From Auanema rhodensis (Eukaryota > Animalia > Nematoda): a stretch of DNA of 64,000 bases. The notes beneath the pieces were generated by a model, which was not told the DNA's origin, did not search any database, and saw nothing but the letters and a program-made list of their open reading frames with translations. Of the stretch, positions 18,001 to 62,926 are shown in pieces. Numbering within the stretch: the first letter of the stretch is position 1; each line of letters opens with the position of its first letter. The DNA lies in NCBI GenBank assembly GCA_964057225.1, contig OZ059895.1, positions 6,758,001-6,822,000 on the forward strand. The letters are read 5' to 3'. A program made the translations under genes and the position numbers.

Positions 18001-19287
18001 TGCACGTGCCATTTGCCTTGAGGTATTCATCTTCATCTTTGGTTTAATTACCCAAGTTTGAGGTACTTTGATGATTCAACAAGGGTTACACCTGATGTTG
18101 AACTAAGTTTTGGAAAGCTCACTATATGTGAGCAACATTGATATTCCATCTTTCTGAAGATTCTGAAGCTTGTCTATCTCTTGATCGGAAATGTTTATTG
18201 TTCAGACAATCTCAGTCTAGAGTTTTGAATGTTTTTCTGAAGAAGAATACGGTGCACGTGCCATTTGCCTTGAGGTATTCATCTTCATCTTTGGTTTAAT
18301 TACCCAAGTTTGAGGTACTTTGATGATTCAACAAGGGTTACACCTGATGTTGAACTAAATTTTGGAAAGCTCACTATATGTGAGCAACATTGATATTCCA
18401 TCTTTCTGAAGATTCTGAAGCTTGTCTATCTCTTGATCGGAAATGTTTATTGTTCAGACAATCTCAGCCTAGAGTTTTGAATGTTTTTCTGAAGAAGAAT
18501 ACGGTGCACGTGCCATTTGCCTTGAGGTATTCATCTTCATCTTTGGTTTAATTACCCAAGTTTGAGGTACTTTGATGATTCAACAACGGTTACACCTGAT
18601 GTTGAACTAAATTTTGGAAAGCTCACTATATGTGAGCAACATTGATATTCCATCTTTCTGAAGATTCTGAAGCTTGTCTATCTCTTGATCGGAAATGTTT
18701 ATTGTTCAGACAATCTCAGCCTAGAGTTTTGAATGTTTTTCTGAAGAAGAATACGGTGCACGTGCCATTTGCCTTGAGGTATTCATCTTCATCTTTGGTT
18801 TAATTACCCAAGTTTGAGGTACTTTGATGATTCAACAACGGTTACACCTGATGTTGAACTAAATTTTGGAAAGCTCACTATATGTGAGCAACATTGATAT
18901 TCCATCTTTCTGAAGATTCTGAAGCTTGTCTATCTCTTGATCGGAAATGTTTATTGTTCAGACAATCTCAGCCTAGAGTTTTGAATGTTTTTCTGAAGAA
19001 GAATACGGTGCACGTGCCATTTGCCTTGAGGTATTCATCTTCATCTTTGGTTTAATTACCCAAGTTTGAGGTACTTTGATGATTCAACAAGGGTTACACC
19101 TGATGTTGAACTAAATTTTGGAAAGCTCACTGTATGTGAGCAACATTGATATTCCATCTTTCTGAAGATTCTGAAGCTTGTCTCTCTCTTGATCGGAAAT
19201 GTTTATTGTTCAGACAATCTCAGCCTAGAGTTTTGAATGTTTTTCTGAAGAAGAATACGGTGCACGTGCCATTTGCCTTGAGGTATT
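1..19287 (+). repeat. 252-bp tandem satellite array, left block (about 76 monomers)
   Basis: Monomer TTCCATCTTTCTGAAGATTC...GCAACATTGATA recurs at 1, 253, 505 and so on. Copies differ by only a few SNPs and rare 1-bp indels. Stops occur in the frames I translated. Confidence 0.99.
19282..19287 (+). other. Left target-site duplication GGTATT
   Basis: Satellite reads ...CCTTGA-GGTATT-[element]-GGTATT-CATCTTC. A 6-bp TSD is typical of Polinton integrases. Confidence 0.96.
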
Positions 19288-19932
19288 AGTAGAGAGCCAT
19301 GCCGAATTTACTAACCACGCCCCCAAACAGTTGCTAAAAACATACTTTTGAGGGCGTCAGCTGCTAAAATCATACTTTTGGGGGCGTCAGCTGTCAAAAT
19401 CATATTTTCGGCGTCAGCTGTCAAAAATATACTTTTTCTCCCGATGCAGGCTCTCGAGCCTGCGCATGGATCAAAATGCATGATTTTTTTTTTTTTAAAT
19501 CATTTTTAAAATTATTTTTTAATCTATTTTTATTATTTATATATTTGTTAATTGTATTTGTAAATATTTTTAAACTTATTTCTTTTTAAATGTATTTTTA
19601 ATATTTATATATATTTCAAATTGTATTTGTAAATATTATTATTTAATTGTTTCTTTTTAAATGTATTTTTAATATTTATATATATTTTAAATTGTATTTG
19701 TAACTATAATTATTTAATTGTTTCTTTTTAAATATATTTTTAATAATATTTCTTTTTAAATGTATTTTAATATTTATATATTTTTTAATTGTATCTTTAA
19801 AACTGAATAAATTATTTCTCATATATATTGTTTTTTATTTATTTAAATATTTTTAAAAGCTAATCAATATGTTCACCGTACTTCTTATGGGTTAATCAAT
19901 GGAACTCATATCGAAGGTTAATTCGATAAGAA
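19288..19932 (+). repeat. Left terminal inverted repeat (about 645 bp)
   Basis: Reverse complement of 35769-36343. The outer ~148 bp are identical; the inner AT-rich part has substitutions and is about 70 bp longer on the left. Confidence 0.93.
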
Positions 19933-20836
19933 GTAATAAATATTTAAACTGAATTTAATGAAACACATATCGAAGGTTAATTCGATAAGATTGTTAAAAC
20001 AGGTGCACTACACATGTACCACATGGCAAAAGTTGTGTTCATAAAAATATGATAAATAGCTGTACACCACATGTACCCATAACGCTAAAGAATACTTACT
20101 ATGCCAAGGGGTCATGAGTATATACGAATATTTTCAAACTTTTTAGCATCAAAAATGTTACTTTAAAGTAATTGTTGTTGTAGCCCTAATAGTTTATAAA
20201 TGTTCTGATAGCTAATGTATTTCATAACTATGTTCAAGAATAGAATAAATGTTTCGTAATATATTTATTGAACAATAAATTTTCATTTAAAATTAGAACA
20301 TGTGTTAACATTTTGTAAGAGTTTCTTTTTTACAAAGTGTCTGGAAATGTTGTACTTGTAATCGGATGTGTACAAGTCTGTTTTTCGCAACAATCCTGCG
20401 TTTCCTCAGAAGGATCCAACATTTTGAATTAGTGTTTCCTAAACTATAAAAATAAGAGTGTACCACAGCTGTTATAATAAGAATATGAATACAATATTAA
20501 ACGATCCTATTGTAATATTCCACAATTTTGGCTGACAGTTGTTATTGTATAAGGACTTGTCACAAATGAGTTGAATTATTGTTAAATATTTGGATTTACG
20601 AAATCGAATGCTGTAACAAGTAATTAATAAGCGGATAGTTTACAGGTTGTTAATCCGGCAACTGTTGGCGCAATCGGTGTATTTTAGCGCATTTGGCAGC
20701 TGTTTGCGCAACAAACTGCTAATTAATGTATAAATGCATATATTTGTTGTAATATATAACAAATAGAAAAGCCGCATACAGCAGTCAACTGTTTTGTGAA
20801 AGAGGCGGAGTGGGTAGAGCTTTACAACAAAGTTTG

Positions 20837-20848
20837 TATAAAAGGGGG
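20837..20848 (+). promoter_or_regulatory. TATA box (TATAAAAGGGGG) upstream of the left-arm gene
   Basis: Perfect TATAWAAR consensus about 260 bp upstream of ATG 21100. Confidence 0.5.
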
Positions 20849-20877
20849 CAAAATTTTTTAGACCGAAATTTGCATTT

Positions 20878-21007
20878 CAGCTCCGCCAACAAGTCGACTC
20901 TACGATCCAGCTCTGTCAACAAGTCTACTCTCCGATCCAGCTCCGCCACCAAGTCTTCTCGCCGATCCACCTCTGCCAACAAGCCGACGATCTGATCCAA
21001 CGTCAAC
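20878..21007 (+). repeat. 30-bp minisatellite, about 4.3 copies (CAGCTCCGCCAACAAGTC...GATC)
   Basis: Units start at 20878, 20908, 20938 and 20968, with a partial unit at 20998. Confidence 0.85.
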
Positions 21008-21099
21008 AGACTGCTGCTAGGACTTTCCTCTACTCTACTTGGACCCTAGACGTAAAAGTTCGTTGTTGTTTAGGAAAAGCCTCCAATTGGGCTACAAAC

Positions 21100-21693
21100 A
21101 TGAAGCGTTCCGCTCTTGTTGATGTAGAGAATATTGTACCTTCGACACCGGAACCGGATGTTCCAAGACCACCCACACCAGGACCCAACTTTGCTGCCAC
21201 ATTCTTTGGTAAGGTTTTATTTTTGTTATTAATTATTTTTTGTTTAGACACACCAAAAAAGCAGGTACAAATCTCAAAGGATAGCTCTCCACAACAGCCT
21301 GTAGTTATGAGACCAATATGTCTCTGCAAAACTTGTAGGGATACATTGCAAGTCGTAGACGAGTACCACTGTTTCAGCCTCTGTGTCAAGTGTAGAGCGA
21401 GGAATGATGCCTTAGGGCTTTTAAAAGTTTTCCGTCATTATAAACCTGAAAATTCAACAATCAATGTGAGATTATAAAATTATTAATTCTAATTATTATT
21501 TTTTCTTTTACAGATGCGTTCCTATTCTAGCATGTCATCAAAACAATTGTTGAATAATATGGGTTACATTGCCATTTATACTGATGAGTCAACTGTCAAG
21601 TCTTTTGGTTATAAGCAGAATGTGTTCTACTTTAAATTAAGTCAACAGGCGCTCAACTTGAATATGCTTATCCGTTTTGATCCATCGTTTTGA
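21100..21693 (+). CDS. Spliced accessory gene, Cys/His-rich hypothetical protein (about 168 aa; 3' structure uncertain)
   Basis: ATG 21100; GT-AG introns 21209-21247 and 21466-21513 keep the frame to TGA 21691-21693. Contains CLCKTC...HCFSLCVKC. Further intron-like segments up to ~21885 could extend or alter the 3' end. Confidence 0.55.
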
Positions 21694-21989
21694 CTACAAC
21701 AAGCACAAACTGTTTAATGGACAGTTGGTTGATTTTGTTATGTTATATTTAAATTTTCTTAGCCGTAACATTTTTTTTTCCAGCTTTCGAAGTTTGAAAT
21801 TATCCATCAACAGCCGACTCTCTAACCAACTGGTAAGCATTAAAAATTTAAATATTAATCAGTTTATAATTATAGGTTATATCATTGTCTTGGCTTTTAT
21901 GTTTTGCTGGTTTTTATTGTTACAATATGAACGATTGATCAAATAAATCATTTATTATTAATACAATTGTTTACAACAACAGTGAAAAA

Positions 21990-23057
21990 TTATACATTTA
22001 AATTTTCTGCATCTATCCATTCATTAAAGTTGTCGGGATAGCCACTCCATTTTACAAATACTTGGCGTTTACCATTTCGTGTACGCTCTTTCAAAACTTT
22101 CTCAATATAGTACTGGTTGCTTTTATTAGTAGCCAACACAAGTTCAGGCTCATAGAATATTCCCTTTATACGTTCACCATTATAATCTACAAGTTTATAC
22201 ACGGTTGGGTTCCCGGCTACAATCTCATCAATTGTGAATAGTTCCATTGTATATCCAGACTCGTAACTTTTTTCAAAAGTACGCCTGTTCTTGCTTATGC
22301 GAACATTATCACCAATTTTGAATCGGTTGCGAACAGCTGGTGCATATTCTTCAACGAATATATTTGCTGTAACATCTACGGGGCGCATTTTAATCGACCG
22401 ATTATAAGATTTGTTTATTCCTTCGACCAAGTCATCTAGTATATCAATCCATCGATGATTATTCTTGTAATAGAGATATTTCATCATGCGCGTTTTTAAA
22501 GTTCTATTTGCTCGCTCCACCATTGCCGCCTTTTGTGGTGAACTTGTTGATCCATGCAGTATGGCAAATTTTTTGAATAGTTTTTCACAATGACTATTAT
22601 AAAACTCTGCACCGTTATCCGTTATTAGTTGGATTGGTATAAAATCCTTGAATACATTTTCAAATGCAGTAGCAACCTCTAAACCACCTTTAGTTTTCAA
22701 AGGCCTAACATATAACATGCGTGTATAAACATCAATCATGGTCAACATGTAAGCATAGCCGTCATTTGATTTTTTATATTTTTGCATATCAACCAAATCT
22801 GCTTGCATTGTTAGGAATCGACCACAGCCTCTAGTCTTTTTAGTCTGCATATGCAGTCTCGTTGGTTTATGACGTGTAAAAGTTTCAGAGTCTTGCAAAA
22901 AACTTTCAACTTGTGCTTTTGCGATGCCATGCTTTCGCGCTTCCAATAATAGATTTTTGGCAGACGTATAAGAAGCTGGATGCTTAATATTATAATAAAT
23001 GTTCTCCAAAACATTACTTCCATAATCTAATGTAGAATCGTTTACGGCCTTTGCCAT
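21990..23057 (-). CDS. Retroviral-like DDE integrase with C-terminal chromodomain
   Basis: QADLVDM / TDNGAEF / VERANRTLK triad. C-terminal YYIEKVL...VFVKWSGYPDNFNEWI chromodomain. First ATG at 23057 (the ORF track starts at GTG 23096). No introns. Confidence 0.96.
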   Translation of the reverse strand: MAKAVNDSTLDYGSNVLENIYYNIKHPASYTSAKNLLLEARKHGIAKAQVESFLQDSETFTRHKPTRLHMQTKKTRGCGRFLTMQADLVDMQKYKKSNDGYAYMLTMIDVYTRMLYVRPLKTKGGLEVATAFENVFKDFIPIQLITDNGAEFYNSHCEKLFKKFAILHGSTSSPQKAAMVERANRTLKTRMMKYLYYKNNHRWIDILDDLVEGINKSYNRSIKMRPVDVTANIFVEEYAPAVRNRFKIGDNVRISKNRRTFEKSYESGYTMELFTIDEIVAGNPTVYKLVDYNGERIKGIFYEPELVLATNKSNQYYIEKVLKERTRNGKRQVFVKWSGYPDNFNEWIDAENLNV

Positions 23058-23751
23058 TCTGTGTTTCTCCCGCCTGAGGTGTGTAATATGATTCACCAGT
23101 GTCAGCGGGTTTTGCCTTTTTATTTATAGCTTTGGATTTGAATGTACGACGCGGAGAGGGTGAATATCGAATAACAGCCTTACGATGACGTGGTGTTCTA
23201 GGTAATATATTAATAGTAGCATCCAAGTCTGTGACAGCCGATGTGGATGTAGGCACGGGATCAACTGAATCCTTGTTACTGACGGCAGGCTCTACATTTT
23301 TTGCCTTCTTGTTAGGGCTAGAGACCCCATTACTGGCTAAGAATTTGGCTAATACTGAGAATCCATTGGGTTCCGTCTTTGTTTTATCCAGTACAAAATC
23401 CAAAATTTTTGTAATATTTGTGTTTGGTACGGGCTCATTATTAATCACAAGTTGGTTATTTTTGTTTGTACGCACCTCTGGAAATCTTTCCCACAGATCG
23501 TTATACTTTCGTGGCAGCTTGTATTCTGGCAATAATGGTGGATCAGCATTTTCCACTTGTACTGATATAGGCGCATCTATGCTTTCTCTATAGTTTTTGA
23601 GACGGGTAATCAAGTCTTCGTATAGTTCAGCCTTTTTATAATCGGGTATAGATTTATTCTCTCGTAAGAGCTTCAATTCAGCATCAAACTTGTCTATATT
23701 CAGCGTTTCATCATCAACAGGGATTAGACGATATTTATGATTGAGTTTCAT
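23014..23751 (-). CDS. Polinton hypothetical protein (245 aa) with basic C-terminus; possible virion core protein
   Basis: Intact ORF, ATGA overlap with the upstream gene, C-terminal QNGKG motif followed by RKRFYIRLWK. Confidence 0.8.
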   Translation of the reverse strand: MKLNHKYRLIPVDDETLNIDKFDAELKLLRENKSIPDYKKAELYEDLITRLKNYRESIDAPISVQVENADPPLLPEYKLPRKYNDLWERFPEVRTNKNNQLVINNEPVPNTNITKILDFVLDKTKTEPNGFSVLAKFLASNGVSSPNKKAKNVEPAVSNKDSVDPVPTSTSAVTDLDATINILPRTPRHRKAVIRYSPSPRRTFKSKAINKKAKPADTGESYYTPQAGETQNGKGRKRFYIRLWK

Positions 23752-24056
23752 CTTTTAAAACCAAAATAAGCAATTCCGCATGAAACTATTGTTTTCAATT
23801 GTTTGTGTGAAATCGTTGCCAATAAAGTTTTAGCCTTTTCGGGTGTGCGTATCAAAGCTATTTGACGTAATAATGAGGATATGGGCAAAAGGGTTTTATA
23901 TTCCTTGTTAGTTAAGAGAAAATTATTATTTTTCACAATATTAAATACAATTTCAACAATAATTTCAATTTGTGAAAAAGAAAATGAGGAAACAGAACAA
24001 GGGGTTTTGGCACAAGAAGATAAAAAGTTGTAATTTGACAAAATACGACCACTCAT
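23748..24056 (-). CDS. Small Polinton hypothetical protein (102 aa)
   Basis: Intact ORF packed between the ATPase and the 245-aa gene. EIVFNIVKNN resembles a motif in small conserved Polinton ORFs (recognised by eye only). Confidence 0.7.
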   Translation of the reverse strand: MSGRILSNYNFLSSCAKTPCSVSSFSFSQIEIIVEIVFNIVKNNNFLLTNKEYKTLLPISSLLRQIALIRTPEKAKTLLATISHKQLKTIVSCGIAYFGFKR

Positions 24057-24068
24057 TGAACATGCACA

Positions 24069-24749
24069 TTAAACACTGAATATATTTCTGGCTACATAAA
24101 CAATAGGGTGCTCCGCTGTTATATCTGATAGTATACGCTGTTTCTCATTTGTTAAAGGATGGTTGTCAATCAGTAAATGACTATAGGGTGTAGACATTGC
24201 ATCATCATATGCTTCTAGAGCATTTTTAAAGCGGGGGCCAAATAATTGTTGCAGACAATTACGTATTTGTAATATATCCGAATGACTTTTCATCAGTATT
24301 ATATATGTACTATTAATTCGACTGGTCCTGTCTAGCTGAAATGCAGCTTGCACAAGATTAAACACTGCCAAATTCCAGTGATGTGCCCACACTGTAAAAA
24401 TGTTGTTGAGTAATTCTTTAGCCGCTTTATTCGATGAGAAAAAATTCATCAAATCATCCAGCACTAGTATGGTGTTTACTCCCTTTTGCTCTTTTATTAT
24501 ATCCGGATCAGGTGGTCCTTGAATAACTATTAAACGCTCATCATTTAATGGAACACCTGACGATGTTCCACATTGACTGAACCAGAATATTCTATCAATG
24601 GGGACGTTGAAAAACTTTTCAGTATTTTCACATATACGTTTTATAAGGGTAGTTTTACCACATTGCGTTGCCCCTATTACAGTTGTCTGACTGGGTAGTT
24701 TGAAGCTGAAAACCATAATCAACCACTCGTAAATGTACCTATAATGCAA
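24069..24749 (-). CDS. A32/FtsK-like genome-packaging ATPase
   Basis: Walker A GATQCGKT, Walker B ILVLDD, downstream HHWNL...Q and R motifs. The true start may be ATG 24716. Confidence 0.93.
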   Translation of the reverse strand: MHYRYIYEWLIMVFSFKLPSQTTVIGATQCGKTTLIKRICENTEKFFNVPIDRIFWFSQCGTSSGVPLNDERLIVIQGPPDPDIIKEQKGVNTILVLDDLMNFFSSNKAAKELLNNIFTVWAHHWNLAVFNLVQAAFQLDRTSRINSTYIILMKSHSDILQIRNCLQQLFGPRFKNALEAYDDAMSTPYSHLLIDNHPLTNEKQRILSDITAEHPIVYVARNIFSV

Positions 24750-24795
24750 ATGATTTCATTTATACTAGTGTGCACGCATCAGGTGGTGGTCTCTG

Positions 24796-25653
24796 ATGGA
24801 TGACTTTTACATTACTTTGCCGTCATCAGTTGACTCTGAAAAAAGTAATACCTCATCAGTGTTTCTTACCAGGTTACCTGAAACATTAAGGCTACGCAAT
24901 AACAGATATTGCATTGGGCTGACAGACATAATTTTTCCGTGTTCGATATTAAATGTACAAGAAAATCTTTCTTATACACTACGTTTTTCCAACAGAAAGT
25001 TTATTCTGCACTTGCCCAAAGGTAACTATGCAAATGGTGATGAAATAATACGCGGAATCAATGCTGGAAAAGAACAATTTATTGCTAGCAGCACTAAACC
25101 TCTTGGAGCTGAGGAAGAAGCACGTATAAAGGGTTTGATAGATAAAGATGAAGATGTGAAAAAGTGGTATAATAATCGACAAGCTGAGGCTAAACTTGTC
25201 AAGGAAATGCTGGCAGACGCCACGTTTCGATTTAACAAAACACTACAACGCATAGAGTTTGTAACAAGTAAGCGGCTATTATTGAATGCAACACTCGGTG
25301 ATGCTCTCGCATATTTTCTTGGCTTTGAGAATAAAATTATCAACGACACGTTAATAGCCAGGCGCCCCATTGATTTTTCAAATAACATTAATACAATGTA
25401 TATATATTGTGATATTGTAGAATATTCCATTCTCGGTAATGTGAAAGCTAATTTACTTGCATGTTTACCTGTACCACCTCCCACTGAATTTGGTAAAATG
25501 ATTGCCAAAACATTTAATCCTATTCGTTATGTACCAATCACTAAGCAAACACTCGATACTATACGTATTGAAATTTTAGATGAATTTGGCCGCCCTATGC
25601 AATTTAATTATGGTTCTACAGTTGTTACATTACATGTTAAAAATGTGAAATAA
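24796..25653 (+). CDS. Minor capsid (penton-like) protein
   Basis: FYITLPS N-terminus, YIYCDIVEYSILG and IRIEILDEFGRPMQF motifs typical of Polinton minor capsid proteins; divergent from the ATPase. Confidence 0.88.
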   Translation: MDDFYITLPSSVDSEKSNTSSVFLTRLPETLRLRNNRYCIGLTDIIFPCSILNVQENLSYTLRFSNRKFILHLPKGNYANGDEIIRGINAGKEQFIASSTKPLGAEEEARIKGLIDKDEDVKKWYNNRQAEAKLVKEMLADATFRFNKTLQRIEFVTSKRLLLNATLGDALAYFLGFENKIINDTLIARRPIDFSNNINTMYIYCDIVEYSILGNVKANLLACLPVPPPTEFGKMIAKTFNPIRYVPITKQTLDTIRIEILDEFGRPMQFNYGSTVVTLHVKNVK

Positions 25654-25658
25654 ATGTT

Positions 25659-26123
25659 TTATTCAACAGTTATACAAGACCACATTACGATTTTCGAAGG
25701 TTTAAAAGGTAGTTCAGCGCCGTTTTGTTCGATGCGCGGCTCGTGTTGTGAATATTCTCGGTTACTATTGCAGCGGCATCGTTTTGGTTCGGTTGACTGT
25801 ACAAACTCCTCAGTTTTTTCAGAGGGTTCGCTGGTATCATTTCCATCACCATCTTTACCATTCGTTCCATTACTATTATGAAGACGCCGAATATGACGCT
25901 GACAATTGAATCTTGTTCCAAAAGTTTCACTACAATAAGGGCACAAACGTCTACGAACACCATCCAAATGTCCATATTTTTGAATAAAGTCAGCATTGCT
26001 GATATAACTGTTACATACGGGTTGAATCCCGTCATGTCTTTTTAATACGTGATCACTAAAATGCTTGGCTGATGAAAATATTTCCTTGCACGTAACACAA
26101 TACTTGTTACATAAAAGTTCCAT
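25659..26123 (-). CDS. Two-finger C2H2 zinc-finger protein (about 154 aa)
   Basis: CVTCKEIFSSAKHFSDHVLKRH and CPYCSETFGTRFNCQRHIRRLH. ATG at 26123, with TATATAAAAG about 40 bp upstream on the minus strand. Confidence 0.8.
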   Translation of the reverse strand: MELLCNKYCVTCKEIFSSAKHFSDHVLKRHDGIQPVCNSYISNADFIQKYGHLDGVRRRLCPYCSETFGTRFNCQRHIRRLHNSNGTNGKDGDGNDTSEPSEKTEEFVQSTEPKRCRCNSNREYSQHEPRIEQNGAELPFKPSKIVMWSCITVE

Positions 26124-26381
26124 TAGAGGAAAATAAAAAACAACCACACACAGTCAACTCACTTTTATATAATGAGTGGAATAATGACTAGTGTTGTACA
26201 AAAACCTAGTCCCAGAGATATTCCTTTAATGAATGGCACTGAAATACGTTTCAAAATCTTTTTGTACAGGGGTGTTGGCACAGATTGTTCCAACGTGTAT
26301 CTTATACATAATTCACAGTGACAGGGAATATTCATAACTGACCACCTAATGTAGCAGGTGACGTTTTAATGGCGAGGTTGA

Positions 26382-26837
26382 TCATATGCTAGATAATTTA
26401 TAGTCGAATACTTTATGCATAAACGCTTTAATAAAGACATCATCGTTTTGTAATAGTTTAAAAAATGAACAAATGCTTTCAAATGTATTACCAGCTGACA
26501 ACATTAGTATTACAAATATTGCATAACCACCACAAGTGTATTCAATTATGCGTTGTGGTTTGCAAGTATTAACTTTTACATTTTTATATTTGGCCAGATA
26601 ATGACGAATGTACTTGTTCATTTTATAACCCAAGCTACAGAAAAAGTAGGCTTGATCATTACGTACAAAGATGACTTGCCAATGTGTGCCCGGTCTATCG
26701 TGTGTGTCAGTATTTACAACAAGTGCAAAGTTCTTTCGACGTGTTTTGGGTAGAGTATCCGCGCTAAATACACCGAGGAATAGTTTTCGAGTGATGCGGA
26801 CAGATCGCAATAGTGACGCTATTTCAGACGAATACAT
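26382..26837 (-). CDS. Adenain-like cysteine maturation protease
   Basis: FLGVFSAD, VVNTD...PGTHW (His) and Q...TCGGY (Gln, Cys). The usual FDS acid position reads FCS. Confidence 0.92.
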   Translation of the reverse strand: MYSSEIASLLRSVRITRKLFLGVFSADTLPKTRRKNFALVVNTDTHDRPGTHWQVIFVRNDQAYFFCSLGYKMNKYIRHYLAKYKNVKVNTCKPQRIIEYTCGGYAIFVILMLSAGNTFESICSFFKLLQNDDVFIKAFMHKVFDYKLSSI

Positions 26838-26887
26838 TTAGTAAAATGATCTAGTGTAACTTTTGTATTGCGCACGTGCGGTTCAAT

Positions 26888-27340
26888 ATGCCACACCTCC
26901 TTCTAGACTTGAACTCAATTCAATGGACAACACTTTTGAATCAACAAATGGGTGGGGCGCCATTTAGTGGAATGATGTTTCAACGTGGTATGCAGAGAGG
27001 TCATGGCCTGGGTGGTATACTGGCAACATTGGCATCGTTTTTACCACGCATTATTCAATCACCTATAGCCCAAAATCTCATCAATGCTGGAAGGAATGCA
27101 TTATCCAGTGCTGTAAGCAATAGTCCAGTTGTAAATTCACCTCTTGGCGGCCAGTTGCTAAAAACTAGCAATGAAATTGTTGATGGGGTGCTCAAGGGCG
27201 ATAATATCAAGCAAACTCTTAAAACAGCCGGCCGGCAGGCTATACGAGATCTTACCGGTTTGGGCAAGCGGCGACGACGCAAAACCACAAAACCTCATAA
27301 GCGTCTGTGCATAACTCGTGAGCGGTCGTATCGTATTTAA
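26888..27340 (+). CDS. Gly-rich precursor core/membrane-lytic protein (adenovirus pVI-like organisation)
   Basis: QMGG, QRGHG and LTGLG cleavage-like motifs, an amphipathic segment and a basic tail. Its TAA abuts the major capsid ATG. Confidence 0.75.
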   Translation: MPHLLLDLNSIQWTTLLNQQMGGAPFSGMMFQRGMQRGHGLGGILATLASFLPRIIQSPIAQNLINAGRNALSSAVSNSPVVNSPLGGQLLKTSNEIVDGVLKGDNIKQTLKTAGRQAIRDLTGLGKRRRRKTTKPHKRLCITRERSYRI

Positions 27341-28675
27341 ATGGCTAAATTGATAGATTCAAAATCAGCACAAGCACTTTTACCTAATATTAATTATAGT
27401 GACATACCGGCGTCGGCATTAGGTGTTGAATCCACTCGTACTGTACAAGTTCCTTTAAAAAATACTTTTCTTCCTCAAGGACCATGGGAATTTGTTATAG
27501 CCCAAAATTCCAAATCATTTCTTAATCTGAGAAGGTGTTGGTTGAATGTAAAATTCAAAATTGTAACCACAAACGGTGATCCAGTACCAGACAACCTTGT
27601 TTTTGCACCATGCCAACAATTTGCAGCCAGTTTGATACACTCGTATCATTTAAAAATTGGTGATGTTAGCGTGTATGACTCTACCGTAAATCATGCCTAC
27701 AAAACATATATTGAGAATATTCTAATGTATAGCAACGATGTTAAAGAGAGCAAACTTGCCATATCAGGCTATTATGCGGATAGATATATAGATAATGCAG
27801 CCAGTCCTGGCTTTAGAGCGCGACAAGGGCTTGTTAAAAATGGCATATTGTGTGAGATGGCTGCTCCCATCAGTATCGACTTATTCAATCAGGAACGACT
27901 GTTTGTAAACTATTCAAAAATGGAGCTAACTGCATATCCAAACCGTGATAATTTCTTAATTGACACACTTGGATGGAATAATGAAAGCAAGGATGCTGCA
28001 ATGAAGGAGGAGTTTCCAAACCTGAAAATAGATATCAACGATGTGCACTTGCTTATTCAAGAGTTTGATCTAAACGCTGGATTAGCTATGGCTATAGAAG
28101 ATAAACTTGTAAAGGAACGAATACACTACCCCATGACGTCAGTGAAAATGCGCTCTTATTTCATAGAAGGAGGTCGTTTGGATTCACCCAATAACATATT
28201 ATTCACGTCGCATACACCGAAACGTGTTGTAGTAGGTCTTGTCGGCGCACACGCCTATAATGGTACTTTTAAACATTCGCCATTCAACTTTAAACCGTTT
28301 GAATTGAAAAATATATACTTGACGCTCAACAATCGGGTAATACCTACCCGCCCTTATAATTTAGAATGGCGTTCTTCCTATGCCACAGCATATATTGACA
28401 TGTTGGAGGGTTTGGGTCTTGGTCGTACAGATTCATCCAATGGTATTACACCAGCAATGTATAAAACCGGCTTCACATTTTTTGTATTTGATATTTCACC
28501 GACTGTACACTCGTCCGAGTTATTTGATGTTATACGACAAGGTAATGTGGCCCTGAAATTGGAATTTGGTCAACAAACGCCGCAAGAGGGTTTATATGCT
28601 ATTGTTTATGCAGAATATGACTCTATTCTTTCAATTGACAACAATCGTGCTCCATATATTGATACCAGTTTGTAA
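27341..28675 (+). CDS. Major capsid protein (double jelly-roll, hexon-like)
   Basis: 444-aa beta-rich ORF with PKRVVVGLV, AYNGTFKHSPFNFKPF and FFVFDISP motifs of Polinton major capsid proteins. No introns. Confidence 0.92.
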   Translation: MAKLIDSKSAQALLPNINYSDIPASALGVESTRTVQVPLKNTFLPQGPWEFVIAQNSKSFLNLRRCWLNVKFKIVTTNGDPVPDNLVFAPCQQFAASLIHSYHLKIGDVSVYDSTVNHAYKTYIENILMYSNDVKESKLAISGYYADRYIDNAASPGFRARQGLVKNGILCEMAAPISIDLFNQERLFVNYSKMELTAYPNRDNFLIDTLGWNNESKDAAMKEEFPNLKIDINDVHLLIQEFDLNAGLAMAIEDKLVKERIHYPMTSVKMRSYFIEGGRLDSPNNILFTSHTPKRVVVGLVGAHAYNGTFKHSPFNFKPFELKNIYLTLNNRVIPTRPYNLEWRSSYATAYIDMLEGLGLGRTDSSNGITPAMYKTGFTFFVFDISPTVHSSELFDVIRQGNVALKLEFGQQTPQEGLYAIVYAEYDSILSIDNNRAPYIDTSL

Positions 28676-28813
28676 TGTATGTAATAAACTCTTTAAAACA
28701 TTTGATGAGAAGAATAAAATTTATTAATACAACTATACATAAAAATCTATAAATACAACCATATACAAATATACACGCGATAATAAAATTTATAAATTCA
28801 AATATATTAAAAA

Positions 28814-31800
28814 TTATTCACAATAACCATAGGGTAAAGTACTAAAATCGTCTAGATAACAAAGTTTATCCATTACGACCTTGGTACTCTTTGTCATGTC
28901 CATCGTGGATATGGCACCAAGCTGCCTCTTTAATAACGTTGTTTTGGTTTTTAAAACCAATTTTTCTCCATCCATCACGAGTCCTCGAACCAATCGCTCC
29001 ATACTTTGATAGTTTACCACGGTGGCTGCCGTGTGGTCCAGCGTCTGTAATTTTAAAAAGTTTCTCAATAATATATTTTTATACTTACCACTCCCTTTGC
29101 CTTGGTGATATACTTGACCTGACCAGCTGCATTTACTAGCTCATAACTATAAACTTTTGCAGCTGGTGAAACAAATTTGGTCATTGACCAACCATCGGGT
29201 ATTTCTGAGGTTAGTTTACCTAACCATTCACCCTTCATATCCTCAATTGGATCAGGCTGATCGAGGCATTTTAAATAAATTAGAGAATCGGTGTCTAAAT
29301 GATGTACGTTTAAATTGTATACAAAGTATAAAATTACCTGTATACACCAAGTTCTTTCCAATTTTTTCCATTGCCTTATACAATAGTAGCCTTGCATGAG
29401 CGGTTGTATAAGCCGCTATGGCTACATTTGTAAACGGCGCTGGTGCCAGGTGTGAGTCTTCTGGCACTGTTGTACAGTACGCCACATCGTCCACAATTTT
29501 GAAGCCCGTGAGTTCCCTTGCAGGATCAGTTATGATCCTACCAATTTCAGGATCCTCAACACCAATAATCTTGGTTTGGGCTTTATCCGGTCTTTGACCC
29601 ATTTTACCCCATACACTATAAACAAATTTGTAAATTTTTATTTTTAAAAGTTTACATACCTATTCAGCTGTAGTTTGGCAATGCTACGCATGGCCGCATT
29701 CTTTTCAATTTTGTTGCTCTCCAGAGCAACACCAGTGTTCTCCTCGTGCTCTTGGAGATATTTTAGCTGTAAAATTCTATTTAATGCCATACTTTTCATG
29801 ACACATACCTTTTCAGCCTCTGTCATATTTGGCTTAGGCCAGCCCGATGCCTCTTGCTTAATTTTTATGTACTTTTGTACAAAATCCTTGAATAGGCCGC
29901 CTTGCTGCCATTCATCCCAGTGCCAAACCTCATAAACATGAAGCACTTTGTAGCCACGCTGTATGGCACATTCGAGCTCTACATGCGTTACAGTCAGATG
30001 CAGCTTTCGAGCGTCTTCATCATCTTGGTGCGGGCATGTTACATTTTTGCCTCTGTTTGCACATGTGCGGCAGTTTGTAAAAATTAATTTACCGCCTATG
30101 CGTGTTCCTAATACAGGATACAACAAATTTGTGGGTGCAAGCACGTCACATTTCACAAGGCCCTTGTATGGGCAGCATGCCTCAAAACTTTCAAAGCCCT
30201 CAGTAATCACTTTAGGATTACCCACAGGGTAATAGGCATCAAATGCCGTTACATATGGATAAAGTGAACAAAAGTCCACATACTCTAGAGAGTATCTATC
30301 CGAAGCTTGGGCCAAAAGCTTATATGTTTGAGTTCGGCCGCCGGTGAAGGCATCTCGAGGTGCCAATCGAGTTACAACCTCAGTGTCCTTCATAAAATTT
30401 GCCATTTGCTCATTTGATGACATTTGAGCAGTAATTTCGTGTTCCCACACAGTGGTTACACTAATGCCCTGGCTTTGAATAGCTTCAAGACTTTTCATGG
30501 TTTTTTCATAAACCTAAATGTTTCAGGTTAAAATGATTAAAAAAAAGTATTGGTTACCTCTTCCATTGTTTCACCATTTCTGCCTGGTGCAATAGCAGTC
30601 TTGTTGGTGCACTGGGGGCAACCATGATAGATACAGCCATTAAACTACAAAATTTTTTCATTTTTTACATTTATTACAAATTACTCACCTCATAGCCGTG
30701 ATTAGCCACACTGTCATAAGCGTCAAGTAGATAGCGTTGGCCATCTACTCTCACAACAAATTCACCACCATTAAGCTTATGCATTAATGGGCGGCCTAAT
30801 CCGAGTTCTAGCCATTTAATGTATTTTATGGCAATTATACTCTGCTTCTGGCCGGCATAATAACCAGTCTCAGGCAGAATACCCACTTGGTTCTCTTTAA
30901 TGTGGTTCATTTTCAACTGTAATATACTAGTTTTGAAAATGCTTGTATTTTAAAAAACTTGCCTGGAATAAAGAGAAACTGGCAAATGTCATACATTGTA
31001 TGACAGGATTCCAGCCAGTGGTGGCGGTGGCCAACTTCATGTACACTTTCATACAGTTGGTTAAAATACGGACATCTGTCCTACAATATTCCAGAAGCTC
31101 CTCATCAAAATCAAACACACTTTGATTACGCTCCTCATACCAAATATTGAATGAAGCTAGGTCTTCTGCTTTCATTCTAGCAGTACAATAGTAATGCTTT
31201 GGTGGCAAGGATGGTAGCACTTTGCCATAATTTATTGGGTGGTTAAAGAGGTATGGGAATTGTCCTTTACTCATATCAGGTACACCAAATGCCTTGGGTA
31301 ACGCTGATAAGGGTAAAGGCACTAGTAAATAACTATCTTTAAAACATAAATGGTTAATGTTTTGACCTCTTAATGGCTTGACAACCATGCTAATAATCTT
31401 GGTCCCATTTAAAATGGGGTCAGGATATATTCCACGGTTTATCAGCCTAGACACCAAGAAATGTATGTCAAAGCGCGACCCGTTGTGCGCAATCAAAATT
31501 GCATTATCATTCTCAGAAAAGTTGAGTAACCAATCAAGGAAACGATCTGTTACAGACCATTCACTATCACCTTGTTGGTACCCAAAATGACCCTCCTTGG
31601 TTGTGCATTTCTCACAGGAATTGGCATCTATACAACTTTCACAAAATTTGTTATACACAACCATATTGGGCCATTGTTCATCTGCATATTCATGAACATT
31701 TGTGCCGTTTTTTAACACAACTGTTTCAAAGTCATAAAATATAATCTTAAACAAGTAAGCATTACACTTGTAAAGATGTTAAATACAAACCTTGTATTTT

Positions 31801-34745
31801 TCTTGCTTCTTTTTTAGCTGAGCCTTCTTCTTGTCGTTAGGTGGAACCCAACAACAAGAGTGCTCTTCAGGCTTTGTCTGACCGCACTTTTTGCAGAATT
31901 TTTCATTGCAATTGTGCGGTCTATCAGCACGGACCATGTGATAGTGATCACACGCCACACATGTCTGAATTTAAGCTTGTTATGTACAACTTTAAATTTT
32001 CACAAAATACCTTGAATTTTCGGCAGGCTTTTCGCAAATGCCTATCGAAGCATTGTTGAGTTTTAAACAAAACTCTACAACTATCACACCTCACGCTACT
32101 CTCAACCACATTCCCCATCGCATTACAATTATAGGTGTGGCATTTTTTACATTTGGCTTTACATCTATGCAACACTGTATTGTAAGATAACTTACAGTGT
32201 TGACATATAATACCATCAAAAATTTTCGAACGACTACCAGCTGTAATACAATCATAGTGATTATTTCGGTAACCTAGTGTTACCAATTTGCTAGCCGCTT
32301 CATTAAATATTTTCTGGATAGTGTACATACGCTGTCCAGGCGGTCTAGCATATACTACAAACTTATAGTTTGTATTACAGCTGGCAATAATGTTTAAATG
32401 AATTAAATTATAATTTGGTAAATCTACAGAAATACCACACCTATTTAATAAATTGATATGGTGTGGCTGATTTGGCAATAAGATGTAATTGCGACGAAGG
32501 TTTTGCAGCCTTCGCTTCTCATCGCCATCTTCAGTAGCCAACTCGTCAGCTTTCCACATTCCCACAACTGCTGATCTAGCCAGACAATGTGAGTCAGTGT
32601 TGGCAATGGTTCCAGGTATTTTGAGTTCGGGGTCAAAATAAAACCCGACTCTACCTTCACCAGGCATCAGGCTTGGCTGCGCTGGCCTTTCATCAAACAC
32701 ATACATCTCAATATTCATTGCCTGGCTGATCACAGCCTCTCGTTTTGATTGCTGCACCTTGCTGATGGCATTCATAATGGCTACGCCATCCAGATGCTCC
32801 CTTCTACGAAAGTCCATAAATATGGAGCCCTTTTCAAAGGAAGGGTGCTCAATTGATAAACAAAATAAGGCTTTTTGCTTATCAGGCACACCGCTTTCAG
32901 CAAGACAACGATCAAGGAATTCGTTGAATAACCGCGGCATGATAACATGCATTGGTTCATCAACATTTTCCAAGTGTGGGAACGTGAGCGATCGAACGAC
33001 CACGTTGGTAAAACGACCGGTGCGTTTTATGCGCCGGTGTGACCACTATAATAAACAACATTTATAACAGTTTACATGCTTTTTTATTTTTTTTTAAAGT
33101 TTAAATAAAAATAGTTTTAAGAATATATATGAATTGTTTCATCTTTTGCTTAAAATTATTATGTCTCTTTGTTTGTTATAGTCGTTATTTTTTTTTTATT
33201 TAATTGAAATGTTTTCAAATATATGCTTAGTTTGTTTCAAAACGATTAGAAAAATACAAAATATTTAAATGTTTCAGTTTTTGAGCATCAAGTTTTTTTT
33301 TTTTAATGTTTAAAAATTTAATAAATAAAAATTAAATAATAGTAGAATTATAAAATTGTTTAAAATATATAGAAATAAAAGAGATGAAGTGAAATGGTTT
33401 AGAAAATACAAAATATTTAAATGTTTCAGTTTTTGAGCATCACAATATTGAAATTTAAATGTTTTTTAGTGATTAAAAATTTAATAAATAAAAATTAAAT
33501 AATAGTAGAATTATAAAATTGTTTAAAATATATAGAAATAAAAGAGATGAAGTGAAATGGTTTAGAAAATACAAAATATTTAAATGTTTCAGTTTTTGAG
33601 CATCACAATATTGAAATTTAAATGTTTTTTAGTGATTAAAAATTTAATAAACGAAATTATGAAAAAGTGATAGAAATTTAAATTTGTTCAAGATATGTGA
33701 TTAAATAAAAGAGATGAAGTGAAATGGCTTAGAAAATATAAATCAATTACATGTTTCAGTTTTTGAGCATCACAATATTGAAATTTAAATGTTTTTTTAA
33801 TGATTAAAAATTTAAAAAATGAAATTATGAAATAGTGGTAGAAATATAAAATTGTTTAATATAGATGGAGTGAAATGGTTTAGAAAAAAAAAAAAAAAAA
33901 CAAAATATTTAAATGTTTCTGTTTTTGCGCATCAAAATATTTAAATTTAAGTGTAATTTAATGATTAAAAAGTTTAATAAATAAAAATTATAAAGTAGTG
34001 GTAAAAATTTAAAATTGTTTAAAATATGAAATTAAATAAAGAGATGGAGTGAAATGATTTGAAAAATACAAAATATTTAAATGTGTCAGTTTTTGAGCAT
34101 CAAAATATTTAAATTTAAGTGTATTTTAATGAATAAAAATTTAATAAATGATATTATGGCATGGATTTGGGATCAGATTTTATTTTATTTTTCAAAAAGC
34201 CACCAAATGTATGATGATTTGTTTAAAAATAGATGGCAGAATTCAAAATTGCTCAAGATATGTAATCAAATAAAAGATATAGAGTGAAAAGAATTGTAAC
34301 ATGAAAAAAAAAAAGGTTAAAAGCTCGTACCTTTATTTGACAAACATCGTTGAAGGATGAACCGCCTCCTAATTGTTCTCCACTAGTTGATGGCATCTCG
34401 GGATTCCATTCTCTGAAAAAAAATGTCATGCTTTTTCATTATATGATAGCTTACTCATTATCGCTGTCATCCAAGGTGATAACTTCAATAACCCTTGATG
34501 ACGAGGGACCACTATTGGAAGTGGTTATTGCGGGGTCACACAGCTCAACACCACCACTCTCGGTAAGTTTTATGCGCTTACTAAAAAAAAAGATGTATAT
34601 TTTAAAAATATTGTTAAATTACCTGAGTTGATAAATTTCCTCATAATCGAACCCCAACTCTTCACATACACGCTTATAACTGAAAATAAATATTTTAATT
34701 AAAAAAAAAAAAAGATAGGAAAAAACACAACCTGTTAGCAGCCAT
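28814..34745 (-). CDS. Protein-primed DNA polymerase B, 14 exons, 1370 aa
   Basis: Exons: 34732-34745, 34623-34679, 34455-34580, 34331-34412, 32011-33045, 31791-31964, 30963-31745, 30689-30916, 30558-30644, 29809-30513, 29660-29766, 29338-29615, 29089-29294, 28814-29044 (4113 nt, all phases compatible). Splicing restores KIIFYDFET, EFNGCIYHGC, KLQLNSVWGK, YTDTDS and KAKGVTL; HNGSRFD and DFCSLYP lie within exons. The first four exons are less certain. Confidence 0.9.
33240..34140. repeat. AT-rich ~150-170-bp tandem repeat (about 6 copies) inside pPolB intron 4
   Basis: The AAATGTTTCAGTTTTTGAGCATCA-like core ends at about 33290, 33442, 33605, 33772, 33934 and 34102. Confidence 0.85.
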
Positions 34746-35658
34746 TGTATCTTGTTAGAATAAAATTATGCAAACTCTGAGAGGTAGTTATCCATATTTC
34801 ATTTTACACATTTATATTACACTTCATTGCAAGAACAGTCAGTTGTTTTATTGTCACGTAACAATGTTGCCAACACTCAACATTGTATCATATTACAGCT
34901 GTCAACAGTGGCAGTTGCCAATCCGCTGTTAATAAATACGCATGTATTGTTGTGGTCAGCGCAACTGTTTCAACAATCTTATCGAATTAATCATCGATAT
35001 GTGTTCTTTGAGTTAGGGTATTAGAATATTAGTAATATACACACTAAAACTTTTTCTATATACTCTTCTTTCCAAGTAATTTGAGAATATTAGAAATCTT
35101 GATGCATATGCTATACAGCTATTTGTTATACTTTAATGAACAAGTGCTTTGCCATTTGGTTCATTGTAGGTCAACGTATCTGTTTCACCAATCTTATCGA
35201 ATTGATATTCGATATGTGTTCCATTAACATTTTTGATACTAAAAACTATATACCCATGACCCCTTGGCATAGTAAGTATTCTTTAGCGTTATGGGTACTT
35301 GTGCTGTACAGCTATTTATCATATTTTTATGAACAAAACTTTTGCCATGTGGTACATGTGTGGGGCAGCGCACCTGTTTTAACGATCTTATCGAATTAAT
35401 CTTCGATATGTGTTCCATTGGAAACAACACAATTGTTTGTGAATCCTATCGAATTAACCTTCGATATGTGTTTTATTGAGTTAGTATATTAGAATATACT
35501 AATATAAAATTTTAAAAAAGGTTCTTTAAACTATTCTTTCATGTAATTTGAAAATATTAGACAACTTGGTACATGTGGTGTACAGCTATTTATCATATTT
35601 TTATGAACAAAACGTTTGCCATGTGGTTCTTGTGTGGGTCAGTGCACCTGTTTTAACG

Positions 35659-35803
35659 ATCTTATCGAATTAACCTTCGATATGTGTTCCATTAACTTTT
35701 GTATTTCATATCGTTCTTATCGAATTAACTTTCGATATGTGTTCCATTAACTTTTGTATTTCATATCGTTCTTATCGAATTAACCTTCGATATGAGTTCC
35801 ATT
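35659..35803. repeat. 55-bp tandem repeat (about 2.6 copies) carrying TATCGAA-N6-TTCGATA
   Basis: Motif starts at 35663, 35718 and 35773. Confidence 0.85.
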
Positions 35804-36343
35804 GATTAACCCATAAGAGGTACGCTGAACATATTGATTACCTTTTAAAAATATTTAAATAAATAAAAAACAATATATATGAGAAATAATTTATTCAGTT
35901 TTAAACATACAATTAAAAAATATATAAATATTAAAATACATTTAAAAAGAACTATTATTAAAAACACATTTAAAAAGAAACAATTAAATAATAATATTTA
36001 CAAATACAATTTAAAATATATATAAATATTAAAAATACATTTAAAAAGAAATAAGTTTAAAAATATTTACAAATACAATTAACAAATATATAAATAATAA
36101 AAATTCATTTAAAATAATACATTAAAAAATAATTTAAAAAAAAAAAATCATGCATTTTGATCCATGCGCAGGCTCGAGAGCCTGCCTCGGGAGGAAAAGT
36201 ATATTTTTGACAGCTGACGCCGAAAATATGATTTTGACAGCTGACGCCCCCAAAAGTATGATTTTAGCAGCTGACGCCCTCAAAAGTATGTTTTTAGCAA
36301 CTGTTTGGGGGCGTGGTTAGTAAATTCGGCATGGCTCTCTACT
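35769..36343 (-). repeat. Right terminal inverted repeat (about 575 bp)
   Basis: Reverse complement of 19288-19932. Confidence 0.93.
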
Positions 36344-36349
36344 GGTATT
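36344..36349 (+). other. Right target-site duplication GGTATT
   Basis: Immediately follows ...CTCTCTACT, and the satellite resumes in register. Confidence 0.96.
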
Positions 36350-54300: not shown

Positions 54301-54722
54301 TACACCTGATGTTGAACTAAATTTTGGAAAGCTCACTATATGTGAGCAACATTGATATTCCATCTTTCTGAAGATTCTGAAGCTTGTCTATCTCTTGATC
54401 GGAAATGTTTATTGTTCAGACAATCTCAGCCTAGAGTTTTGAATGTTTTTCTGAAGAAGAATACGGTGCACGTGCCATTTGCCTTGAGGTATTCATCTTC
54501 ATCTTTGGTTTAATTACCCAAGTTTGAGGTATTTTGATAATTCAACAACGGTTACACCTGATGTTGAACTAAATTTTGGAAAGCTCACTATATGTGAGCA
54601 ACATTGATATTCCATCTTTCTGAAGATTCTGAAGCTTGTCTCTCTCTTGATCGGAAATGTTTATTGTTCAGACAATCTCAGCCTAGAGTTTTGAATGTTT
54701 TTCTGAAGAAGAATACGGTGCA
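36344..54722 (+). repeat. 252-bp satellite array, right block (about 73 monomers)
   Basis: Same monomer, orientation and register as the left block. Confidence 0.99.
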
Positions 54723-57700: not shown

Positions 57701-57949
57701 AACAATAAACATTTCCGATCAAGAGATAGACAAGCTTCAGAATCTTCAGAAAGATGGAATATCAATGTTGCTCACATATAGTGAGCTTTCCAAAATTTAG
57801 TTCAACATCAGGTGTAACCCTTGTTGAATCATCAAAGTACCTCAAACTTGGGTAATTAAACCAAAGATGAAGATGAATACCTCAAGGCAAATGGCACGTG
57901 CACCGTATTCTTCTTCAGAAAAACATTCAAAACTCTAGGCTGAGATTGT
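54721..57949 (-). repeat. Inverted satellite block 1 (about 12.8 monomers)
   Basis: Sequence switches to the reverse-complement monomer CAGAAAGATGGAATATC... at 54721. Confidence 0.97.
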
Positions 57950-62600: not shown

Positions 62601-62926
62601 AATACCTCAAGGCAAATGGCACGTGCACCGTATTCTTCTTCAGAAAAACATTCAAAACTCTAGGCTGAGATTGTCTGAACAATAAACATTTCCGATCAAG
62701 AGATAGACAAGCTTCAGAATCTTCAGAAAGATGGAATATCAATGTTGCTCACATATAGTGAGCTTTCCAAAATTTAGTTCAACATCAGGTGTAACCCTTG
62801 TTGAATCATCAAAGTACCTCAAACTTGGGTAATTAAACCAAAGATGAAGATGAATACCTCAAGGCAAATGGCACGTGCACCGTATTCTTCTTCAGAAAAA
62901 CATTCAAAACTCTAGGCTGAGATTGT
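59698..62926 (-). repeat. Inverted satellite block 2 (copy of block 1)
   Basis: Same junctions and private SNPs as 54721-57949, offset by 4977 bp. Confidence 0.97.

Follow-up and report, generated by a model that had tools for sequence, protein, structure and literature searches.

A thirteen-intron polymerase gene in a Maverick element of the nematode Auanema rhodensis, probably intact and spliced by its host

The stretch of DNA analysed here (the window; 64,000 nt of the nematode Auanema rhodensis, contig OZ059895.1 of assembly GCA_964057225.1, positions 6,758,001 to 6,822,000) holds a complete Maverick/Polinton element, and the gene for its protein-primed DNA polymerase is divided by 13 introns (Table 1). 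On our reading the Maverick is complete and multi-copy and its polymerase gene is intact, with host splicing likely to remove all 13 introns from the transcript and to yield a predicted polymerase of 1370 residues; we put the probability of this reading at about 0.87.

The first-pass annotation of this DNA had placed 13 introns in this gene, eleven of them 42-46 nt long, and had derived a single stop-free frame of 1370 amino acids; positions, lengths and frame were all confirmed, on the minus strand. The exons sum to 4113 nt, or 1370 codons followed by TAA; neither they nor the codons at the junctions contain an in-frame stop, and the longest, exon 5, has 345 codons. Retention of any single intron would shift the frame or introduce a stop in 12 of the 13 cases, intron 10 alone being readable through. 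GC content was 12-29% in the introns and 37-50% in the exons. The ends are GT-AG in every intron except intron 7, whose GC-AG ends the first-pass annotation does not mention, and an exonic AG precedes 11 of the 13. When the three introns of an accessory gene on the same element were added, position -5 of the acceptor was T in 16/16 introns and position +5 of the donor was G in 11/16; the nematode acceptor consensus is UUUUCAG. By these ends and by the donor and acceptor consensus, the introns would be classed as major (U2-type) spliceosomal introns. Each short intron offers 11-46 alternative GT/GC..AG pairs, of which 0-21 leave the frame open and 0-3 also have GT and T at -5.

Table 1. Features of the Maverick element in window coordinates; exons and introns are numbered in transcript order.
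Feature	Position	Strand	Remarks
Protein-primed DNA polymerase gene	28814..34745	-	13 introns
Exons 1-4	34732-34745, 34623-34679, 34455-34580, 34331-34412	-	93 codons together; least certain part
Introns 1-3	34680-34731, 34581-34622, 34413-34454	-	52, 42 and 42 nt
Intron 4	33046..34330	-	1285 nt, 18% GC
Exon 5	32011..33045	-	345 codons
Intron 5	31965..32010	-	46 nt, phase 0, Cys-rich linker
Intron 6	31746..31790	-	45 nt, phase 0, directly before Exo I motif
Intron 7	30917..30962	-	46 nt, GC-AG, phase 0, start of Vsr-like insertion
Intron 8	30645..30688	-	44 nt, phase 0, in conserved E-x-x-G-C-x-x-H-G-C motif of Vsr-like domain
Intron 9	30514..30557	-	44 nt, phase 0
Intron 10	29767..29808	-	42 nt, phase 0, in frame without stop
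Intron 11	29616..29659	-	44 nt, phase 2 in Ser codon of Pol B motif
Intron 12	29295..29337	-	43 nt, phase 1 in first Asp codon of Pol C motif
Intron 13	29045..29088	-	44 nt, phase 0
Complete Maverick/Polinton	19288..36343	.	17,056 nt; inserted in 252-bp satellite array
Left terminal inverted repeat	19288..20009	.	about 0.7 kb; segments 94-97% complementary to right arm
Right terminal inverted repeat	35641..36343	.
Accessory gene, family not recognised	21100..21693	+	introns 21209-21247 (39 nt), 21466-21513 (48 nt)
Optional GT-AG segment	21335-21377	+	43 nt; within accessory coding frame; 47% GC
rve integrase with C-terminal chromodomain	21990..23123	-	one open reading frame; PF00665 E 2.9e-9, PF00385 E 2.5e-8
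Intronless open reading frame	23014-23754	-	no Pfam family above cut-off
Intronless open reading frame	23748-24068	-	no Pfam family above cut-off
Likely packaging ATPase	24069..24755	-	one open reading frame; weak P-loop matches below cut-off
Likely minor capsid protein, 294 amino acids	24769..25653	+	assigned from size and position; without Pfam family match
C2H2 zinc-finger open reading frame	25659..26153	-	E 7.6e-5, below cut-off
Likely adenovirus-type cysteine protease	26382..26837	-	one open reading frame; PF00770 E 0.0018, below cut-off
Intronless open reading frame	26855-27340	+	no Pfam family above cut-off
Likely major capsid protein, 444 amino acids	27341..28675	+	one open reading frame; convergent with polymerase

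Alignment to pPolB homologues showed that most usable proteins, by a wide margin, run continuously across junctions 7-13. Each exon was blasted separately against 217 homologous sequences, and a junction was counted as joined when the exon ends met within 1 residue. Junction 11 was joined in all 138 usable proteins, junction 7 in 78 of 80, junction 10 in 161 of 172, junction 12 in 100 of 107, junction 8 in 71 of 79, junction 13 in 21 of 24 and junction 9 in 52 of 62; the homologues lack the 14 residues that intron 10 would encode. Junctions 5 and 6, in the Cys-rich linker, were weaker (joined in 9 of 21 and 7 of 12). As the homologues have no residues at introns 7-13, conversion of coding sequence into these introns was ruled out, and, judged from the alignments, the introns are insertions relative to the homologues.

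Exon 5 opens directly behind a stop codon, and its homology begins at residue 8, ahead of its first Met at residue 32, so that some upstream exon is needed. Intron 4, which lies before it, contains 5.2 copies of an AT-rich 163-bp tandem repeat (33299-34149; 84% matches) and perhaps began as a short intron that expanded later. Exon 8 contains, in sequence conserved among homologues, an in-frame GT..AG segment of 45 nt (30796-30840, minus strand), possibly a cryptic intron of the size favoured by the host. One contig from run X14, described below, ends its match beside the donor of this segment, its loose end resembling by eye the sequence beyond; another contig reads through.

The model of exon 5 (pLDDT 82) is predicted to comprise a terminal-protein-like domain and a vOTU protease domain. 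Residues 13-121 matched the little finger of Pol IV (4ir1; Z 6.8, root-mean-square deviation (rmsd) 3.0, 96 aligned) and residues 136-273 matched OTU proteases (best Z 10.3, rmsd 3.6, 129 aligned), with Cys154 of the vOTU domain invariant in 47 sequences. Exons 7 and 10 matched PF03175. The Exo I-III and Pol A-C motifs, named as in the list of Jeong et al., are legible in the exons. Between exons 7 and 10, modelling points to a Vsr-like PD-(D/E)XK fold, which was seen on P0040, the nearest named relative (59-68% identical to exons 8-9); the corresponding domain of the window gene spans three exons. The matching region of P0040 aligned with Vsr (1cw0; Z 9.3, rmsd 5.4, 113 aligned), tied with a mitoribosomal protein chain at Z 9.8; the homing endonuclease I-Bth0305I is, like Vsr, among the neighbours of its fold. 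Judged by domain layout, the window polymerase would share the Vsr insertion that marks the pPolB2 subgroup of Jeong et al. (bioRxiv 10.1101/2023.08.22.554363).

The nearest named polymerases were those of Auanema sp. JU1783 (64% identity over half of exon 10), Caenorhabditis angaria and C. brenneri, and they formed with the window gene a well-supported group of 7 rows (SH-aLRT 98). Family members among named gene models were P0040, P0001, P0045, P0010 and P0024, from Auanema, Caenorhabditis angaria, C. brenneri, Aphelenchoides and Heterodera; the Vsr-like motif is present in P0040 and P0001, two models that gene finders seem to have spliced wrongly. Jeong et al. (bioRxiv 10.1101/2023.08.22.554363), in the parts of their text available, report the Vsr domain only in one marine nematode and in molluscs, and our comparison suggests that Vsr-type polymerases may be spread more widely in terrestrial nematodes than that survey reports.

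The element around the gene has the traits of a Maverick/Polinton, namely inverted repeats of several hundred bases, a length (17,056 nt) within the usual 15-20 kb, a 6-bp target duplication (identical at 19282-19287 and 36344-36349), a protein-primed PolB (PF03175) with terminal-protein and vOTU domains, and an rve integrase, whose match exceeds the Pfam cut-off. For the packaging ATPase, the protease and the minor capsid protein, the element offers candidate reading frames whose size and location would suit. All core genes other than the polymerase are single open reading frames, the integrase and virion genes needing no introns. The 444-residue protein is likely a double jelly-roll (DJR) major capsid protein, on the strength of a lead-level Atlas match: its clusters scored 0.96-0.98, and 15-29% of their members carry DJR or Sputnik capsid families. 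Sequence searches of the PDB with exon 7 and with a capsid profile gave nothing useful. Intronless core genes, the common published description of Mavericks, are not what was found in the polymerase.

Evidence for splicing came from sequencing runs. Eleven runs from three studies carried the gene as DNA, none of them on record as RNA, and three added runs (X13, X14 and X15) were guessed to be RNA; no X15 contig matched, which is evidence in neither direction. Read contigs were placed on the gene except at 33101-34745, the part holding exons 1-4 and most of intron 4. Two contigs from X13 skip introns 11 and 13 exactly, with joints 29615/29660 and 29044/29089 that each remove 44 nt, and they derive from sister copies, as 7 of 136 and 26 of 208 letters differ from the window. 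An 800-nt contig from X14, with 2 differences and 1 gap, skips three 39-48-nt GT-AG segments in the accessory gene. No intron-skipping joints were listed for the DNA runs X8 and X1. One X13 contig loses its match just before intron 10, and the X14 contig that retains intron 9 loses its match where the acceptor of intron 8 lies. Inspected by eye, the loose end of each looks like the following exon, which would add introns 8 and 10 to those skipped, with the joints left uncalled by the tool.

The Maverick family has many copies. In the DNA run X1, 682 contigs matched the gene, at 99% to under 90% likeness. In the tables of copy variation, which hold the best-supported rows only, all 10 of the listed places with insertions or deletions (indels) within the gene fall in introns, although introns account for just 398 nt (9%) of the 4232 nt compared, and of 36 exonic substitutions listed, 25 affect the third position of a codon; together these indicate that the frame is kept while the introns drift. 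Intron 9 is among those carrying indels between copies. Sister copies share introns 8, 9, 11 and 13 at the same places, as seen from diverged sequence or from the same joints.

The first-pass annotation had several introns cutting catalytic motifs, which held for Pol B and Pol C (and for the motif of the Vsr-like domain) but not for Pol A or Exo I-III, all of which are unsplit. Its particular claim that an intron splits the Asp codon of YT(D)TDS was correct, this being intron 12. As to whether such motifs are targeted, enrichment of introns at conserved sites within the window gene was not significant (p 0.06-0.10, 157 sequences). Ranked by conservation, the sites of introns 11 and 12 are in the top 2% and those of introns 8 and 13 close to the top fifth, all others coming below the median; 6 of the 8 scored introns (6-10 and 13) lie outside the top tenth. 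Across relatives, targeting of the Pol B motif did find support.

This support came mainly from the ends of homologous proteins. Of 177 proteins, 96 extend into the C-terminal region, and 55 end at profile positions 985-1229 with a tail of at most 10 residues; 18 of these 55 ends fall in a stretch of 8 profile positions at the Pol B motif, where 1.8 were expected. Seven proteins have N-R for N-S and then a stop or divergence, the signature of read-through into an intron at the very base where intron 11 lies, and other protein ends would imply at least five further offsets in this motif, or at least six in all. At the DNA level, the Trp codon of the Pol B motif is interrupted in five loci of one lineage by a GT-AG intron of 87-90 nt; in L024 and L033 this intron sits two bases further along than the intron of the window gene, and the sister locus L047 is without it. 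In a tree of 50 rows chosen from 202, with a midpoint root only, the 8 rows with the window's offset were rejected as one clade by the approximately unbiased test (p-AU 1.6e-7), requiring 6 changes, 3 of them forced by strong branches. Among intron-free loci, GGTAA occurs at the G-K codons in 5 of 50 distinct contexts and an AGY Ser codon offering an AG| site in 13 of 50. A ready-made donor is thus uncommon in the motif, and a simple cryptic-donor artefact, which was considered for the pile-up, fails to explain it. The Pol B motif is an apparent intron hot spot across relatives, with several offsets in what appear to be separate clades, and members of the polymerase family have likely gained introns there repeatedly and independently; repeated gain is the simpler reading when set beside one old intron with loss and sliding.

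In the best 80 of 386 metagenome loci, the matched polymerase lay in one open reading frame in 39, a clear GT-AG intron was present in 6, and more than two candidates were found in none; this count is biased low, since loci were picked for an unbroken stretch like exon 10 and the same scan recovered only 6 of the 13 window introns. The single GT-AG introns of metagenome Maverick polymerases measure 87-110 nt (L024:3551-3640, L033:3451-3537, L032:2037-2146) and lie either in the Pol B motif (the five loci from a single lineage) or a short way ahead of Pol C. Many metagenome copies are decayed, with breaks that hold no extra DNA. No close genomic relatives were found in viral contigs with the exon 10 and capsid alignments or in metagenomes with the capsid alignment; the 13 loci from viral contigs, at 26-39% identity, were too distant for use. 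The nearest unnamed relatives of the window gene are mostly short fragments of open reading frames. Two relatives at 54-57% protein identity have reading frames that end by read-in at the site of intron 10, and P0102, whose source may be DNA or transcript, is unbroken through junctions 5-9, which points to an intron-rich nematode clade with turnover.

The introns of the window gene share no sequence likeness: the best pair scored below the shuffle mean, and 95% of shuffles reached that score. An introner origin was rejected on this ground, as introns so unlike each other do not form one introner family. They were likely gained one by one while the lineage was resident in nematodes and inherited with the element.

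Taken together, the continuous frame, the continuity with homologues, the exact skipping of introns 11 and 13 and the confinement of indels to introns bear out the proposal in the first-pass annotation that an apparent pseudogene is an intact gene using the host spliceosome. Under this reading, host Pol II would transcribe the gene in the nucleus and the host spliceosome would remove the 13 introns; the vOTU domain would then free the terminal protein, which would prime replication from the inverted repeats as in the model of Krupovic et al. (PMC11161782), and the integrase would insert copies with the 6-bp duplication. The polymerase and the accessory gene, the sole bearers of introns, are likely early genes. 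Most introns would be tolerated because the host removes them, and perhaps even favoured if splicing damps small-RNA silencing.

Several points weigh against this reading. Junctions called by the tool number only 2 of 13 (introns 11 and 13), and the spliced polymerase contigs derive from copies about 88-95% identical to the window copy rather than from that copy itself. The presumed-RNA runs consist of contigs of depth 2-6 from one study, their RNA nature being a guess, and one X14 contig retains intron 9. Exons 2-4 have no detectable homologues among the 217 sequences and exon 1 was too short for the test, so that introns 1-4 are called from splice signals, GC contrast and frame. Independent gain in the Pol B motif is drawn mostly from protein ends, the DNA giving one offset in one lineage, and the pattern may instead go back to an old intron that was lost many times and slid.

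Among the alternatives, the one that survives best, although we hold it to be unlikely, is the proposal of the first-pass annotation that the introns act as a control device, by which the efficiency of splicing gates polymerase output or limits the element to hosts able to splice introns of 42-46 nt. The restriction of introns to the polymerase and one accessory gene would suit this, as would the retention of intron 9 in one contig, the GC-AG intron and the optional 43-45-nt segments in coding sequence. In Caenorhabditis, moreover, transcripts with fewer introns are more prone to overproduction of 22G-RNA (PMC9683057). Partial splicing, however, is expected in any RNA set of low depth, and 12 of the 13 introns have ordinary strong signals.

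A second alternative, to which we give slightly less credence, holds that the introns are scars of a nuclease, possibly the Vsr-like domain of rival polymerases: conserved stretches would be cut, repair would add DNA, and only insertions that can be spliced would survive, leaving a site that can no longer be cut. The excess of protein ends at Pol B with its at least six implied offsets, the rejection of a single clade for the window's offset, the intron of L024 and L033 that is absent from L047, and the kinship in fold with Vsr and I-Bth0305I all agree with it. Set against these are the scored introns outside the most conserved tenth, the non-significant enrichment overall and the unsplit Pol A and Exo motifs; conserved codons supplying AG|G sites, or an old intron with loss and sliding, could also mimic the picture.

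Entry of the introns after integration, as introner-type insertions or host debris in a dead or domesticated element, appears very improbable. Full-length eupolintoviral elements of dinoflagellates do hold introners, mostly acquired after integration (PMC12166617), and the window copy sits in satellite DNA. The introns here, however, have no common sequence, four of them are shared by sister copies, and the reading frames of relatives at 54-57% identity end at the intron 10 site; the element itself retains arms 94-97% complementary and a perfect target duplication. A decayed pseudogene whose AT-rich insertions are bounded by GT..AG by chance is barely credible, since, for all the stops and frameshifts of a naive translation and the decay of many metagenome copies, 13 insertions preserve one frame with T at -5 in every acceptor, likely RNA skips introns exactly, listed indels keep to the introns, and all other core genes are open.

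Comparison with known systems placed the element among Maverick/Polintons and set its polymerase apart; the statements that follow hold for the available parts of the papers cited. Polintons with a Vsr-containing pPolB (Jeong et al., bioRxiv 10.1101/2023.08.22.554363) share the inverted repeats, 6-bp duplication and integrase and, as far as the likely assignments here go, the ATPase, protease and capsid, and their pPolB, like ours, has a Vsr-like insertion between the exonuclease and polymerase domains. The polinton pPolB described as TP-vOTU-EXO-PALM by Krupovic et al. (PMC11161782) has the same little-finger terminal protein, identified with the same reference structure (4IR1), the vOTU Cys and PF03175, and the PolB of Alpha adintovirus (Starrett et al., PMC8502044) is listed with the same layout of terminal protein, vOTU and PF03175. 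The word intron is absent from the available text of PMC11161782 and occurs once in that of PMC8502044, for group II maturases. Vertebrate Mavericks (Barreat and Katzourakis, PMC8097293) have the same core genes, repeats and 6-bp duplication, and intact ones are reported to be free of introns.

Closer to the window element, Widen et al. (bioRxiv 10.1101/2022.07.12.499685) report complete Caenorhabditis Mavericks in which an accessory or cargo region, placed like the spliced accessory gene here between the left repeat and the integrase, likewise contains introns. The first-pass remark that introns are known in some nematode Mavericks thus holds for cargo genes but not for core genes, as in Caenorhabditis the genes for polymerase, integrase, ATPase, protease and capsid are said to lack introns, whereas the window polymerase has 13 introns. 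Polinton-like viruses of dinoflagellates (Gozashti et al., PMC12166617) resemble our case in having intron-type insertions in full-length elements; their introners, however, belong to repeated transposon families that for the most part arrived after integration and lie outside coding regions, whereas the window introns are mutually unrelated, lie in an essential gene and are common to sister copies. In their available text, three further sources (PMC12220804, PMC11296320 and bioRxiv 10.64898/2026.10.13.758929) treat self-splicing introns only. Titles and the openings of abstracts yielded no report of spliceosomal introns in an animal Maverick polymerase, though older papers, Repbase and supplements may hold some.

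These findings bear on how Mavericks are counted. Published inventories define intact Mavericks by long intronless reading frames, and by such a criterion an intron-rich lineage would be scored as decayed or missed. The eukaryote-wide pPolB survey of Jeong et al. (bioRxiv 10.1101/2023.08.22.554363) used a 650-amino-acid tBLASTn match and a reading frame of at least 900 amino acids, which the window gene fails because its longest exon has 345 codons. Lineages missed in this way would bias both the count of animals with potentially active Mavericks and the range of Vsr-type polymerases in nematodes. Thirteen introns in an essential replication gene also make the element depend on transcription in the nucleus and on splicing by the host, and this would speak against the lineage having a cytoplasmic, helper-dependent life cycle. 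Intron gain, moreover, is rarely caught in the act, and a mostly intron-free family that appears to gain introns repeatedly within about 12 bases of one catalytic motif would allow a direct test of the mechanisms of gain, such as proto-splice sites, sliding and break repair. Were the introns indeed scars of a nuclease, they would represent a natural, repeated case of intron gain through double-strand-break repair under selection.

Some minor observations concern the rest of the element and its surroundings. The optional segment of the accessory gene (Table 1) encodes part of a Cys-rich, zinc-finger-like stretch, and skipping it cuts the product from 168 to 77 codons, through either alternative splicing or mis-splicing; one X13 contig loses its match at the donor of this segment. 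A Pardaxin match on 26876-27337 was weak and below the cut-off, and was disregarded. A motif of about 34 nt occurs in 2 copies in the left repeat (19896-20009) and in about 8 copies over a stretch (34958-35803) that leads from the right repeat to the sequence upstream of where the polymerase starts, and is a candidate origin or promoter element. The 252-bp satellite fills 1-19287 and 36344-64000 with units about 98% identical, and the insertion point of the Maverick falls within one unit. Two inverted blocks of equal length, each of 12.8 units, lie in the satellite at 54721-57949 and 59698-62926, an arrangement that suggests a duplicated inversion.

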